Shown one piece after another: positions 1 through 64,000 of a stretch of 64,000 bases of DNA. The DNA is taken from contig JACRJN010000131.1 in assembly GCA_016235675.1 (NCBI GenBank), positions 1,779-65,778 of the forward strand. The letters run 5' to 3'. Origin of the DNA: Candidatus Schekmanbacteria bacterium (GTDB lineage Bacteria; SZUA-182). The notes under the pieces are model-generated. The model did no database searches and was not told the origin of the DNA. It saw only the letters and a list, made by a program, of their open reading frames with translations. How positions within the stretch are numbered: the stretch's first letter is position 1; every line of letters starts with the position of its first letter. The position numbers were made by a program, and so were the translations under genes.

Positions 1-262
1 AAATAATATCCAGGACGCGCCGGATTTGGTGGTGGAGATAATTTCCGAAAGCAGTGTCTACCGGGATTCGGTAAGAAAAAAGAAGCTTTATGCCAAATTC
101 GGGGTCAAAGAATTTTGGCTGGTCGCTCCTGAAGAAAAAATGATTGAGGTTTATAATTTGGACAATCAGAGGTACCGTTTAAGCCAGACTTGTTTTTATA
201 ATGACAGCCTGGAATCTCAGGTTTTGAAAGGCTTCAGGATGGATTCGAAGGATATTTTTTAA
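1..262 (+). CDS. Uma2/DUF820 family putative endonuclease, 5'-truncated by the window edge
   Basis: C-terminal 78 aa are about 60% identical to the C-terminus of the complete Uma2-like ORF at 4772..5323. The reading frame is open to position 1. Confidence 0.6.
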   Translation, partial: NNIQDAPDLVVEIISESSVYRDSVRKKKLYAKFGVKEFWLVAPEEKMIEVYNLDNQRYRLSQTCFYNDSLESQVLKGFRMDSKDIF

Positions 263-359
263 ATCAATCACTATTCATTTGTCATGGTTTCGGCTTTTCT
301 CAAGCCAAACATCCTAACATGAGTTTTATACTCTTTTCGAATACTCCGGGGAATAAGTA

Positions 360-590
360 ATGAAAAATTTAACACGAATCACATTTGACCCCAATGTGAT
401 GGGCGGGAAGCCTTGTATCCGCGGATTACGCCTCACTGTTGGAACTATTGTCGGGCTGATTGCTACAGGATATTCCACTTCAGACATTTTGAAAGCATAT
501 CCTTATCTGGAAGAAGACGATATTCGCGAAGCACTTAAATACGCCGCCTGGCGAGTTGAAGAAATCGAATTACCCTTGGTACCCATATGA
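360..590 (+). CDS. DUF433 domain protein (antitoxin-like)
   Basis: 76 aa with a GGKPCIRGLRLTV motif typical of DUF433. ATGA overlap with the downstream gene. Confidence 0.6.
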   Translation: MKNLTRITFDPNVMGGKPCIRGLRLTVGTIVGLIATGYSTSDILKAYPYLEEDDIREALKYAAWRVEEIELPLVPI

Positions 591-949
591 AACTGCTGGT
601 TGATATGAATCTTTCTCCTATGTGGATTGAATTTTTCGAACAGCAAGGGTGGCAAGCACTTCATTGGTCAACAGTGGGTAACCCTCGTGCAACTGATATT
701 GCAATCATGGATTGGGCGCGGGAAAATGATTATGCGGTATTCACTCACGATCTTGATTTTGGAGCTTTGTTAGCGGCTACCAGCGCTGACAAACCTAGTG
801 TTATTCAGGTACGTACACAAGATATTATGCCCCATAGTTTAGGCCCCAAATTAGTAAAAATATTACGGCAATATGAATCAGTTCTTAATAATGGGGCATT
901 GCTAACTGTGGACGAAAACAAGTCCAGAGTGCGTATTCTACTTTTTTAG
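587..949 (+). CDS. DUF5615 (PIN-like) domain protein, putative toxin partner of DUF433
   Basis: 120 aa translationally coupled to the DUF433 ORF. DUF433-DUF5615 pairs are a recurrent two-gene module. Confidence 0.55.
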   Translation: MKLLVDMNLSPMWIEFFEQQGWQALHWSTVGNPRATDIAIMDWARENDYAVFTHDLDFGALLAATSADKPSVIQVRTQDIMPHSLGPKLVKILRQYESVLNNGALLTVDENKSRVRILLF

Positions 950-984
950 CAACCAGTAATCACATAATTTCTAGGATTAAACCT

Positions 985-61555: not shown

Positions 61556-62155
61556 ATGAATTACATAGTAGCAATCAGCGGAGCCAGCGGAGCAATCTAC
61601 GCCCAACGATTGCTGCAAGCCCTGGCGCAGGAAGGCGCCCGGATCCAACTTATCATCAGCGATACTGCCCGCCTGGTGATCAAGCACGAACTGGGGATAG
61701 AACTAGCGGCTGACCCCACCGCCCAAAAAGCGATCATTGCTGAACAAATTCTGGGCAAGTCCGATTATCCCCATTTACACATCCACGCCATCGACAACCT
61801 GGCGGCCTCCATCGCCAGCGGCACAGCACCGATAGACGCCATGATCGTTCTTCCCTGCTCCATGGGCACACTCTCCCGCATCGCTCACGGCATTTCCGGC
61901 AACCTGATCGAACGCTCCGCCGACGTCGCCCTGAAAGAAAAACGCCCATTAATCTTAGCCCCCCGCGAAACACCCCTAAACACAATTCACCTGCGCAACA
62001 TGCTGGAATTATCCCAAGCCGGAGCGCAAATCATCCCCTGCATGCCAGCTTTCTACCACTGCCCTAAGCAAATCAACGACTTGATTGATTTTGTAGTCGG
62101 CAAGATTCTGGATGCGTTGAAAATCGATCATCAATTGTTTAAGCGCTGGGAATGA
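61556..62155 (+). CDS. ubiX: flavin prenyltransferase UbiX
   Basis: 199 aa. An ISGASGAIYA N-terminus and conserved UbiX/Pad1 blocks. Confidence 0.9.
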   Translation: MNYIVAISGASGAIYAQRLLQALAQEGARIQLIISDTARLVIKHELGIELAADPTAQKAIIAEQILGKSDYPHLHIHAIDNLAASIASGTAPIDAMIVLPCSMGTLSRIAHGISGNLIERSADVALKEKRPLILAPRETPLNTIHLRNMLELSQAGAQIIPCMPAFYHCPKQINDLIDFVVGKILDALKIDHQLFKRWE

Positions 62156-62282
62156 TTTCTCGAATAACGTAGTCTAAAGCCCTTTAGGGCTGAACCTCCA
62201 GGGCTAAAGCCCCGGCACTATGGTAGGGGAAATTTTGAAACACTCAAAAATATATACAAACCGACAATATTATGCTATACTT

Positions 62283-62660
62283 TAAAAATTATGGGGGCGA
62301 CTGGTTTCGACGGGGCTATTGAACCTCCAACTGCATGTCGAGCATTCTACTGACTCGTAAATCCGGTGGAAAAACAATAAACGCAAACTACTATGGCGAA
62401 AGCCAATTAGCTTTAGCCGCCTAATTAGTGCGGCTTCGTCCACCCTGCTTCGCTGATGGAGCGGGATGTGGGCGGCATATACATCAGATAGCGGATCCGC
62501 TTCGCCTAAGGGCGGACGAGCGAAACTACACTTTGGCTGGCCTTTCTTTGATCCTGCCGCCGGGAGCGGAAAGAGGCGAGAAACAATCCAGCGGCTAAAC
62601 ATGTAGAAGTTGCCGGCAAGGTACTCTCGGACGCGGGTTCGATTCCCGCCGCCTCCACCA
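62283..62660 (+). ncRNA. ssrA: tmRNA (SsrA)
   Basis: 5' GGGGGCGACUGGUUUCGACGGGG and 3' GGACGCGGGUUCGAUUCCCGCCGCCUCCACCA tRNA-like ends. The internal tag reading frame is ...ANYYGESQLALAA followed by a stop. Confidence 0.9.
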
Positions 62661-63059
62661 GTTTGTCGGTGGGATGTCTATATATTTTGGATAGTTACAA
62701 GCTGCCCAAAATTTCCAAACCGCAAACGTCATTAAAACGTCATTATTCCGGTTCAAAAAACCGAGAGTAGTGGCGTTTTTTTGTATGAATACAATGAGAT
62801 AAGGGAAATTTTTGTGCCCCCATAGTTGTTATAATTTCCCCTAAAACGACATAATTTTCCATTCCGTTTCTCATAATATTGCAAATTAGCAGATCGATTG
62901 CCTTATTTGCAATATATTTTAATTAGATTACTCATTTTTTAACCTTGACAACTTCCCCCTGGATAGATAAGCTTCAATTGTTGACATATTAATCAAGCAT
63001 CTGACGGTTCTAATTATAAATACACCTTACAATTTTTCTAGGGAAGGAGAGAAATTTAT

Positions 63060-64000
63060 ATGAAAAAAATGGGTATTAAAGTAAATTCTGCATTAATTTG
63101 CCTATTTCTGGCTGTTTTCGGCATTTTACCCCCCCCATCGTCATTTGCATCTTCATTGGCAGGCCCGCCCCCAAGTACGGAAGAATTGGCGCAAAAAGCC
63201 GATTTACTCGTGATCGGTCGTGCAACCTCAAAAGAGGCGGAATGGGATGAACAACATAATACAATCAATACATACTATCGCATTGAAGTAGAACAAATTA
63301 TCAAAGGGAAAGTTGTCCCCGATCTTGTCGTCAGATACGAAGGGGGAGAAGCGGAAGGAATGGGTACGTGGCGTTCCGATGTTAATCCGGATATATTGAA
63401 AATCGGTGACCAGGTAATTCTTTTTTTGCAGCCTGACAACCAGTACCCGTATTCTGTAACAGGTGGGGAAAATCAGTATATTAGCATTAAAAACCATAGG
63501 GTTGATTTCGGGAAGATATCTGAATTAGATCGATGGGTGGGTCAAAGAGAGGAACAAACGGTGGAGCAGTTTGTTCAAAATATCAGGGAGCGTTTGGAAC
63601 TGCCGTCTCCGATTTATATAACTCCCGCTCCTTCTAAAGAAAGACCTCAGCCCACTCCAAAGGAGCCGCCTCAGTCCGCTCAAACATCCGGGACAGCTCC
63701 CGCTGAAAAAAAAGAGGAGCTGCCTCAGTCCGCTCAAACATCCGGTACGGCTCCCGCTGAAAAAAGAGCGCAGCCGCCTTCCCCCGCTCAGAGAATGCTC
63801 ATCCCTAAGCAAGACAAATCGGATCATTTAATTCCGGATAGTCATAAGAAATTAGCTCCTTCTCCCCAAATAAGCATTAGTTCTGGTTTGCCTAACTTAA
63901 AGGCTTATGTACCCAGCGGTTGGGGGAGCGCATTGGTTGTCTCTTCGGTTTCCGGCACAAGCTATGACGGGCCTAACCTTAATAATTGTAATAACACTTA
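63060..64000 (+). CDS. secreted protein with tandem Pro/Gln/Ala-rich repeats, 3'-truncated by the window edge
   Basis: GGAAGGAGAG RBS, a signal peptide, and a near-perfect tandem repeat PQSAQTSGTAPAEKK. The frame is open to the end of the window. The antisense ORFs in the table are rejected. Confidence 0.55.
   Translation, partial: MKKMGIKVNSALICLFLAVFGILPPPSSFASSLAGPPPSTEELAQKADLLVIGRATSKEAEWDEQHNTINTYYRIEVEQIIKGKVVPDLVVRYEGGEAEGMGTWRSDVNPDILKIGDQVILFLQPDNQYPYSVTGGENQYISIKNHRVDFGKISELDRWVGQREEQTVEQFVQNIRERLELPSPIYITPAPSKERPQPTPKEPPQSAQTSGTAPAEKKEELPQSAQTSGTAPAEKRAQPPSPAQRMLIPKQDKSDHLIPDSHKKLAPSPQISISSGLPNLKAYVPSGWGSALVVSSVSGTSYDGPNLNNCNNT

Follow-up and report, generated by a model that had tools for sequence, protein, structure and literature searches.

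GTAG-tagged repetitive extragenic palindromic (REP) sequences have been described as a superfamily of small repeats in which an unpaired GTAG precedes a stem of 6–13 bp and a short loop (Di Nocera, De Gregorio & Rocco 2013, PMC3733652). According to this survey, several families are present per genome, with compensatory stem variants, and the units occur mostly as head-to-head dimers between same-direction or convergent genes; their ends supply stop codons, in-frame dimers are found in genes including those of tRNA synthetases, and the genes of REP-associated tyrosine transposases (RAYTs) are flanked by cognate REPs, forming family-specific REPtrons. Here, we analyzed a stretch of 64,000 nucleotides from an uncultured groundwater bacterium, Candidatus Schekmanbacteria (assembly GCA_016235675.1, contig JACRJN010000131.1, positions 1,779 to 65,778 of the forward strand; hereafter the window, to which all positions refer unless a locus of another genome is named), whose intergenic spaces are crowded with ~55 short hairpins beginning with GTAG, most of them paired as palindromes that end with CTAC. 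We consider, with a probability of about 0.8, that these GTAG...CTAC elements are REP sequences, mostly inverted two-REP doublets of the REPIN (REP doublet forming hairpin) or bacterial interspersed mosaic element (BIME) type, and that they are linked to RAYTs.

REP sequences can reach high copy numbers, with ~600 copies (~1% of the genome) in Escherichia coli and more than 1600 in Stenotrophomonas maltophilia (Ton-Hoang et al. 2012, PMC3333891). GTAG-dependent binding and cleavage of single-stranded REP DNA by a RAYT are known only for E. coli, S. maltophilia and Marinomonas, and in the S. maltophilia REPtron it has been established that mutations in GTAG abolish cleavage, that the loop is critical for recognition and that paired changes in the stem are tolerated (Corneloup et al. 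2021, PMC8266576).

Abundance and anatomy of the GTAG-tagged units

Hairpins were defined as perfect, non-overlapping stems of at least 6 bp closed by loops of 3–6 nt, with 30 dinucleotide-preserving shuffles of the window as control, and a hairpin was considered as GTAG-tagged when GTAG lay within 7 nt of its stem foot. The window contains 131 hairpins (69.7 ± 7.0 in the shuffles), among which 44 are GTAG-tagged for 1.5 expected (shuffle maximum 4). GTAG is by far the commonest tetranucleotide flanking the hairpins, followed by TAGC (24) and CGTA (21), which correspond to the GTAG motif shifted by one base. Tagged hairpins represent 35 of the 58 intergenic hairpins, and 35 of the 44 are located outside open reading frame (ORF) calls.

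Consensus searches of the window, allowing up to 4 mismatches, recovered six GTAG families with a total of 52 units of 21–24 nt, 23 of them without any mismatch to their family consensus:

Family A, 7 units: GTAG-GGTGGGC-TGC-GCCCACC
Family B, 13 units: GTAGC-GCAGGGC-TTTA-GCCCTGC (B1) and GTAGC-GCAGACC-TTTA-GGTCTGC (B2)
Family C, 10 units: GTAG-CACAGGCW-TCY-WGCCTGTG
Family D, 12 units: GTAGTCC-CAGCCC-TTTA-GGGCTG and GTAGTG-CCRGGGC-TTTA-GCCCYGG
Family G, 4 units: GTAGT-TACCYGA-TTTA-TCRGGTA
Family H, 6 units: GTAGC-GYKGGGG-TTTAT-CCCC...

Of the 52 units, 40 pair as 20 head-to-head doublets with GTAG...CTAC on the outside, and tail-to-tail pairs are absent. The GTAG elements of the window are the following (the strand is given for those that have one; z values are fold z-scores of the doublet as single-stranded DNA):

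4119–4165: head-to-head doublet of family A, made of GTAGGGTGGGCTGCGCCCACC and an inverted copy of it, 7 nt past the stop of the V-ATPase A gene; fold −21.9 kcal/mol, z −7.1
4651–4742: family A doublet with a 50-nt spacer, its right arm (4722–4742) degenerate
5329–5386: family G doublet (GTAGT-TACCTGA-TTTA-TCAGG.. / GTAGT-TACCCGA-TTTA-TCGGGTA); z −7.9
6846–6868, minus strand: single family C unit (GTAG-CACAGGC-loop-GCCTGTG) at a convergent gene junction
6870–6893, plus strand: single-copy GTAG hairpin GTAGGGCGAATTTGTATTCGCCCT
8251–8302: family D doublet, its CTAC end duplicated (AACTACGA x2.4, 8297–8315)
11952–12024: family A doublet lying between two (CTTCGTGNN)x3 arrays in inverted orientation
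14384–14406, plus strand: single family C unit
14451–14612: two degenerate or split D-like doublets (GTAGTCCCGTGGCTTTAGCCACG ... GGGCTTTAGACTAC)
16018–16093: family B doublet (B1 GTAGCGCAGGGCTTTAGCCCTGC and inverted B2 GTAG(T/C)GCAGACCTTTAGGTCTGC) with outer arms GTTCACTTAA / TTAAGTGAAC; z −4.2
16242–16304: family H doublet with variant stems ACGGGGG / CGGGAG
16891–16946: family B doublet, in frame inside leuS
19171–19245: family H doublet whose left tag reads GTCG, in the spacer separating the divergent leuS and patatin genes, within the longest ORF call and upstream of the Pfam domain that starts at residue 59
21599–21800: nested family B elements, with a truncated B1, a complete inverted B doublet and the remaining halves
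25117–25172: family G doublet, 10 nt downstream of the stop of a carbamoyltransferase gene
26972–27023: family D doublet (GTAGTCC-CAGCCC-TTCA-GGGCTG ... CCAGGGC-TAAA-GCCCTGG-CACTAC), folding as two hairpins closed by GTAG:CTAC; z −4.7
28236–28427: family C doublet with a family F palindrome (28274–28365) at its centre
29090–29217: family C doublet with an 82-nt spacer
29228–29248, minus strand: single family A unit
29897–29947, minus strand: C unit and B1 unit in tandem, in one orientation
35868–35942: degenerate C doublet and B1 unit, overlapping the 3' end of the ORF 35760–37496
42621–42688: family D doublet, after which the tag is duplicated (CTACGG x3.3)
43477–43557: family H doublet (GTAGC-GTTGGGG-TTTAT-CCCCAAC / GTAGC-GCGGGGG-TTTAT-CCCCCGC); z −5.2
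50280–50302, minus strand: single family C unit
51454–51620: two degenerate or split D-like doublets with a 17-nt terminal duplication that includes CTAC (51587–51620)
57151–57261: family B doublet ending in a duplication of 23 nt (GTCTGCGCTACGTTAAGTGAACA x2.1)
59819–59977: outer 29-nt inverted repeat (arms at 59819/59949) enclosing a B doublet (59850–59927)
60005–60055: family D doublet, its right arm degenerate, preceded by CCGTAG x2
61453–61504: family D doublet overlapping the 3' end of a formyltransferase (fmt-like) gene
62168–62221: family D doublet with both tags degenerate, ~70 nt upstream of the tmRNA gene

Two builds can be recognized among these families. B, D, G and H have in common GTAG, 1–3 nt, a stem of 6–7 bp and a TTTA/TTCA or TTTAT loop, with two stem variants per doublet, while in A and C the GTAG abuts a stem of 7–8 bp that is closed by 3 nt. 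The stem variants are compensatory and keep the pairing: CAGGGC/GCCCTG versus CAGACC/GGTCTG in B, CCAGGGC versus CCGGGGC in D, TACCTGA versus TACCCGA in G and GTTGGGG versus GCGGGGG in H. As single-stranded DNA, a doublet folds in two ways, either as one long imperfect hairpin or as two small hairpins closed by GTAG:CTAC, with z-scores all between −4 and −8; because the two arms carry different stem cores, either arm is able to fold by itself and only an imperfect long hairpin results. An alignment of the six D doublets shows a single unit of 55 nt running from CGTAG to CTACG, with unrelated flanks, and three B doublets have in common a spacer of ~30 nt.

Several elements end with duplicated tags, such as CTACGG repeated 3.3 times and terminal duplications of 8, 17 and 23 nt that contain CTAC (42669–42688, 8297–8315, 51587–51620, 57214–57261 and 59995–60006, the CCGTAG/CTACGG repeats included). 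Since repeated processing at the tag would produce such ends, these duplications may be footprints of repeated cutting and joining. Elements are also nested in one another, a B doublet lying inside a B element, a family F palindrome in the middle of a C doublet and a B doublet within the 29-nt inverted repeat.

The claim of the preliminary description that palindromes occupy nearly every intergenic space held up, as at least one palindromic repeat was seen by eye in about 30 of the 38 spaces that exceed 30 nt. Its count of at least 12 families stands only if families without a GTAG tag (E, F, hairpins and arrays, described below) are included, the GTAG families proper being six, and its letters cannot be mapped one-to-one onto ours. 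The listed elements (GTAG families with E and F) take up 4.9% of the window (~3.1 kb) and about one third of its non-coding bases. With ~0.8 GTAG units per kb, the density is far above typical, as had been proposed, and roughly six times that of E. coli; the values for E. coli (~0.13 REPs per kb) and S. maltophilia (~0.33) were computed with genome sizes that we assumed. When tagged hairpins are counted in the same manner, the window has 0.69 per kb versus a median of 0.25 in 8-kb loci of other genomes picked for a B unit. On reading the window, ~22 of 25 occupied sites are between same-direction genes, the other three comprising a convergent site, a divergent site and the site within leuS, and most copies are near the 3' end of the upstream gene. 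CRISPR-like arrays and satellites were ruled out, the copies being dispersed and inverted, without regular spacing.

Comparison with described REP systems

Every feature of the GTAG families of the window has already been described for GTAG-tagged REPs (PMC3733652), which supports, if indirectly, the earlier reading of the palindromes as RAYT-mobilized REPs. There are nevertheless differences with this survey: Candidatus Schekmanbacteria is not among the eight phyla that it lists, many of its loops are TY or CMA while four families of the window have a TTTA/TTCA tetraloop, and ~0.8 units per kb exceeds the values that it quotes for REP-rich species. In the REPIN-RAYT system, two inverted REPs and their spacer form one repeated unit, as do the B and D doublets here, and the RAYT is flanked by its own repeats, as at the RAYT loci of other genomes described below (Bertels & Rainey 2011, PMC3116915; Bertels et al. 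2017, PMC5581495). In contrast to REPINs, the arms of the doublets in the window carry different stem cores (e.g., CAGGGC and CAGACC), and the RAYT clade to which they can be linked is found in many phyla of uncultured anaerobes, REPINs having been defined in Pseudomonas and enterobacterial groups.

In E. coli, GTAG is likewise 5' of the hairpin foot and BIMEs combine two REP types (y and z) inverted and separated by linkers, just as the doublets of the window combine two stem types; the E. coli enzyme TnpA-REP is a Y1 (single-tyrosine) HuH protein whose structure, 4ER8, is the best solved match of the clade RAYT. The E. coli REPs are however imperfect palindromes of 30–40 nt with a bulge needed for binding, whereas the units of the window are ~23 nt long and mostly perfect (Ton-Hoang et al. 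2012, PMC3333891). Closer in build is the 23-nt REP of the S. maltophilia REPtron Sm (SMAG), with GTAG, a perfect 8-bp stem and a 3-nt loop (Corneloup et al. 2021, PMC8266576): families C (8 bp and TCT/TCC) and A (7 bp and TGC/TGT) have the same build, with different stem and loop sequences. Finally, Rickettsia palindromic elements, as presented in PMC3733652, are in frame in essential genes to which they add 20–40 residues, much like the leuS insertion of the window; those elements are CGTC-tagged or belong to longer classes and have no known transposase, whereas the leuS insert is a GTAG doublet.

We found no report of REPs in Candidatus Schekmanbacteria in the literature, and a literature search with the exact repeat sequences returned chance primer matches only. 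For the class of units with a TTTA or TTCA (TTYA) loop and its RAYT clade no description was found either, in a comparison that did not extend to the sequences of the 24 families published in PMC3733652. What is new is the candidate-phylum host, the local density and variety of the repeats and, perhaps, the TTYA-loop class with its RAYT clade. GTAG REPs and RAYTs have been studied almost entirely in cultured Proteobacteria, and here the system is seen, about six times denser than in E. coli, in a candidate phylum that only metagenomes have revealed.

Association with RAYT genes in other genomes

Species-representative genomes were scanned with the exact 23-mer of family B, which matched at least 110 stretches. 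Among the matches listed are Acidobacteriota (Vicinamibacterales), Desulfobacterota, Actinomycetota, Pseudomonadota, Nitrospirota, Chloroflexota, Brocadiales, WOR-3 and Gemmatimonadota, and no Schekmanbacteria locus; many of the copies belong to head-to-head doublets in which the second stem is compensatory. In two loci the exact B 23-mer directly flanks a Y1 transposase (RAYT) gene. One, in a metagenome-assembled genome (MAG) of Desulfobacteraceae (locus L097), has two B units just upstream of the RAYT gene and another inserted within it; the other, in an Acidobacteriota MAG (L075), has three B units upstream and two inverted units downstream. The identity of the L097 protein is well supported: it matches Pfam Y1_Tnp (PF01797) and scores 112.5 bits with the NCBIfam equivalog NF047646 'REP-associated tyrosine transposase' (cut-off 80) versus 31.9 bits with the IS200 model, below its cut-off of 55. 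Its best match in the PDB is 4ER8, E. coli TnpA-REP, with weak similarity (E = 1.6e-7).

This RAYT belongs to a large clade, with 1844 word-sharing homologues at E <= 1e-5 (named hits include WOR-3, Brocadia, Kuenenia, Saganbacteria and Deltaproteobacteria) and the conserved motifs [YF]CFMPDH.H and WQ..[YF]Y[DE]H. A metagenome scan with an alignment of 22 sequences of the clade gave 570 relatives, of which 80 loci were kept, and in 79 of these 80 loci units of one design are present within 300 nt of the RAYT gene: GTA(G/A), usually 1 nt, a variable stem mostly of 7 bp and a TTTA or TTCA loop. The 317 RAYT-flanking units have GTAG (77%) or GTAA (23%) as their tag, followed in 71% by a gap of 1 nt; a 7-bp stem is found in 65% of them, TTTA loops (60%) predominate over TTCA loops (28%), and 103 different stems are represented. 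A fixed tag and a fixed loop combined with a free stem agree with the biochemistry of the S. maltophilia REPtron (PMC8266576). Families B, D, G and H of the window fit this design, their stems being the main difference among them, and at one metagenomic locus (L179) the exact B1+B2 doublet of the window immediately follows the RAYT gene. Three further RAYT genes, on NCBI and Logan contigs of other genomes, have a matching flanking arrangement, without the other families of the window. A testable rule emerges, in which the members of this large clade of RAYTs from uncultured bacteria are almost always flanked by hairpins that are alike in tag and loop but not in stem.

The presence of an identical 23-mer in distant phyla could be taken for recent transfer across phyla. 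We downgraded this possibility: GCAGGGC is the commonest of the 103 stems on a common scaffold (8% of the units), and because identity can arise repeatedly with such a stem, an identical B 23-mer is no proof of recent transfer.

Units with a GTAA tag, otherwise alike in stem and loop design (e.g., GTAAC-TCAGCCC-TTCA-GGGCTGA), flank the RAYTs of loci L144, L150, L155, L158, L159, L164, L167, L170, L175, L177 and L183. Of note, the RAYT genes of L179 and L194 are 75% identical and both are located between a methylenetetrahydrofolate reductase gene and a tldD/pmbA gene, which suggests vertical inheritance of the REPtron within that lineage.

Repeats within and at the ends of genes

In the window, REPs have also entered coding sequences. 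The leucyl-tRNA synthetase (LeuRS) encoded by leuS (16335–18923, minus strand) contains an in-frame insertion of 37 residues (16863–16973) that is absent from five aligned relatives; a family B doublet (16891–16946) encodes, in frame, 19 of these 37 residues and the other 18 flank it. The D doublet at 61453–61504 supplies the last ~12 codons and the TAA stop (61488–61490) of the formyltransferase gene. REP units also occur inside RAYT coding sequences of other genomes.

One side observation concerns the clade itself. Some RAYT genes have a REP-derived in-frame insertion (VAQGFSPAQ...) between the HuH motif and the region of the catalytic tyrosine (L097, 904–1482; protein P0124), and the same insertion may be present in many clade members of 185–200 residues.

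Repeats as dense as those of the window can break or mis-join metagenome assemblies, and they create spurious ORF extensions and altered gene ends, as with the fmt stop codon and the leuS insertion. They could also be used as markers for binning and strain typing.

Proposed mechanism and alternative explanations

In the mechanism that we propose, each unit would form a small hairpin in single-stranded DNA and leave the GTAG at the 5' foot unpaired. The folded hairpin would be bound by a RAYT (TnpA-REP), a single-tyrosine transposase of the HuH type with relatives in IS200/IS605, which would use the GTAG tag and the loop to cut beside the hairpin, and the doublet would thereby be copied or moved to new sites, mostly just downstream of genes. 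The copies would have been spread by a RAYT of the host, present now or formerly. The cleavage step is modelled on the biochemistry of the E. coli and S. maltophilia enzymes, and no new mechanism is needed. Regarding the number of enzymes, one RAYT of the widespread clade, reading tag and loop and tolerating diverse stems, could plausibly serve B, D, G and H; A and C may require a second, Stenotrophomonas-like RAYT, because their build is that of the S. maltophilia REP (GTAG abutting the stem, 3-nt loop). The preliminary description had opposed several RAYT lineages to one relaxed enzyme, and each of these proposals may be partly right.

It is tempting to go one step further and to consider the TTYA-loop units as a modular REP code, composed of GTA(G/A), one base, a free stem of ~7 bp and a TTTA/TTCA tetraloop, and read by one RAYT clade in more than ten phyla of mostly uncultured bacteria from sediment, soil and groundwater. 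We regard this proposal as speculative, with the odds clearly against it. If true, Schekmanbacteria would be an extreme case, in which one or two enzymes would have let many stem variants and other palindromes invade essential genes and occupy about one third of the non-coding DNA, and identical REPs in distant phyla would reflect repeated horizontal spread of REPtrons, at odds with the notion of an almost exclusively vertical inheritance of REPIN-RAYT systems.

Several observations weigh against assigning the repeats of the window to RAYT-linked REPs. As the preliminary description had noted, there is no RAYT gene among the 64 kb, neither tblastn nor a RAYT-profile hidden Markov model search of the six frames having found one. 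Two RAYT queries recovered many homologues, none of them named Schekmanbacteria, and a cluster look-up for a host RAYT provided accessions for one of ten candidates, that one from another MAG. Moreover, families A, C, D, G and H stand beside no RAYT in the 80 loci or in ~1.1 Mb of loci, only B doing so by exact sequence. The leuS insertion is the only one backed by comparison with relatives, and the closest relative's LeuRS is only 68% identical. Finally, the copies could be old and no longer mobile.

This last point leads to the alternative that survives best, according to which the repeats are fossil REPs: a RAYT would have spread them in the past and been lost since, leaving immobile copies that are neutral or co-opted as hairpins. 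The failure to find a RAYT in the window, or for the host MAG in homologue searches, fits this view, as do the many degenerate or split copies (the D-like elements at 14451–14612 and 51454–51620, the A arm at 4722–4742 and the tags at 62168–62221) and the fact that REPtrons can be deleted while REPs stay, as reported for many E. coli strains (PMC3733652). However, units with no mismatch to their consensus (23 of 52) or with a single one are numerous, which suggests recent copying, and the search for a RAYT covered only 64 kb of the genome. We judge the fossil scenario unlikely.

Much less probable is that the repeats are conserved functional hairpins (terminators, mRNA-stabilizing stem-loops or protein-binding sites) maintained by selection and not mobile DNA. 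The location of most copies between same-direction genes near the upstream 3' end, the identical 23-mer in many phyla and the report of REPs as RNA elements (PMC3733652) would be in line with such a role. As a class, though, the GTAG units are neither standard terminators nor known RNAs, because four or more Ts are found within 12 nt, on either side, of only 10 of the 52 units and because an Rfam scan of the window gave no match to the repeats, its sole match above the gathering score being the tmRNA. Hairpins of this kind would also hardly account for a doublet in frame in leuS, REP units within RAYT coding sequences, nested insertions, sharp GTAG/CTAC boundaries with unrelated flanks and the tight linkage to RAYT genes elsewhere. 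A function for the host is compatible with spread by a RAYT and does not replace it.

The weakest alternative is that of miniature inverted-repeat transposable elements (MITEs) in the classical sense, which derive from DDE-type insertion sequences, are non-autonomous, move by cut-and-paste by means of their terminal inverted repeats and are accompanied by target-site duplications. It might be evoked by the long palindromes with extended arms (the B element that carries GTTCACTTAA arms, the element with 29-nt arms at 59819/59949, and the 75–85-nt E and F) and may hold for E and F, which have no GTAG tag, but it is scarcely credible for the GTAG elements, in which no target-site duplication was seen at the aligned D flanks nor, by eye, at the B boundaries, the conserved part is the tag with its small hairpin and not a terminal inverted repeat, the units flank Y1 (HuH) and not DDE transposase genes elsewhere, and no transposase was noticed in the window, where not all ORFs were annotated.

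Repeats lacking the GTAG tag

Besides the GTAG-tagged REPs, the window contains repeats that are not GTAG REPs and that may be moved by other means: the palindromes of families E and F, C-run/G-run hairpins and arrays of 7-mers and 9-mers. Family E has seven copies of a two-tier palindrome of 75–85 nt (GTCATTGCGAG..GCGAAGCAATCTC..loop..GAGATTGCTTCGC..CTCGCAATGAC) without a GTAG tag of its own; two copies are enclosed in an outer GGTAGCG...CGCTACC palindrome and a third has the left outer arm only. Family F has two copies, both containing ATTCCCG...CGGGAAT. No strand is assigned to these elements:

8046–8182: E-long, with the E palindrome (core ~8074–8152) inside the outer GGTAGCG...CGCTACC palindrome
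9105–9181: family E palindrome, no GTAG tag, in the orientation opposite to the copy at 8074
12883–12968: family F palindrome (TGTCATTCCCG...CGGGGATGACA), no GTAG tag
28274–28365: family F palindrome, at the centre of the C doublet
33199–33276: family E palindrome
34497–34594: family E palindrome (34526–34594) with the left outer GGTAGCG arm
40990–41067: family E palindrome
50099–50180: family E palindrome
60161–60297: E-long, with the E core (60190–60266) inside an outer GGCAGCG...CGCTACC palindrome

An optional GCAGCCTTATCGCC module is found on one arm of family E. Elsewhere, E occurs in loci L053, L059 (labelled Actinomycetota) and L193 (7873–7941; an unclassified NCBI assembly). No link of family E with a transposase was found. 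The motif of family F is also present in L003, L014, L025, L028, L042 and L085; it resembles the core of the Neisseria dRS3 repeat, a likeness that may be a coincidence.

The other repeats without a GTAG tag comprise CCCCCTTT..AAAGGGGG hairpins, TTTCGGCGTG hairpins and inverted pairs of tandem arrays. Hairpins with a C-run and a G-run (CCCCCTTTAGCAAAGGGGG, CCCTCTTTGCCAAAGAGGG) are located at 31533–31551, 31638–31656, 60101–60119 and 60373–60391, with a cluster at 53640–53870. The 9-mer arrays, (CTTCGTGNN)x3 followed by GTG, are arranged as inverted pairs, each enclosing an entire intergenic cassette in which other palindromes are found:

11893–11917 and 12061–12085: inverted pair of 9-mer arrays
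31491–31516 and 31674–31698: inverted pair of 9-mer arrays
51377–51401 and 51658–51682: inverted pair of 9-mer arrays
53554–53578 and 53946–53970: inverted pair of 9-mer arrays

The same 9-mer array is found at loci of Desulfobacteraceae, a delta-proteobacterial MAG and Vicinamibacterales (L014, L025, L028 and L064) as well as in an unclassified metagenome contig (L160), and in L064 the two arrays of the pair are only 20 nt apart. Tandem arrays of heptamers (AGGCTTG, CGAGATA, GTTGTCA and others) mostly form inverted pairs, either adjacent or bracketing:

6795–6824 and 6899–6922: heptamer arrays
9219–9294: heptamer array
20296–20349: heptamer array
42545–42603: heptamer array
52935–52986: heptamer array
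55306–55379: heptamer array

Cyanobacteria are known for short tandemly repeated heptamers and small dispersed repeats, with heptamer arrays and nested palindromes in intergenic DNA. The resemblance of the window to these is only loose: the host is not a cyanobacterium, there is a single HIP1 site (n = 1) and the arrays are inverted pairs. A cyanobacterial origin, which the heptamer arrays could suggest, was rejected on account of this HIP1 count, of the non-cyanobacterial tmRNA tag and of a LeuRS identical to that of a Schekmanbacteria MAG.

Genomic context

The window is ~84% coding, with a G+C content of ~47%, and its genes encode V-type ATPase subunits, LeuRS, RecJ, a formyltransferase and enzymes of polysaccharide synthesis, in addition to a tmRNA. 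The LeuRS is 100% identical to the NCBI protein MBI5789077.1 of a Candidatus Schekmanbacteria MAG, encoded on a contig of 65,938 nt, of which the window is therefore nearly the whole. V-type ATPase clusters are uncommon in bacteria. Here, the cluster (A/B subunit type) is located at 985–6816, and its genes for subunits A and B are separated by REP doublets and small ORFs (4113–5415). The tmRNA gene is as follows:

62293–62660, plus strand: tmRNA gene with tag peptide ANYYGESQLALAA, the degenerate D doublet lying ~70 nt upstream

This tag is of a non-cyanobacterial kind. Two tandem repeats are unrelated to the REPs. One, of 120 nt and in frame, is present in four copies that are 63–71% identical (14854–15453) in an ORF of 445 residues (14625–15962, minus strand); the other, of 54 nt with 2.2 copies, is at 63661–63779 near the end of the window.

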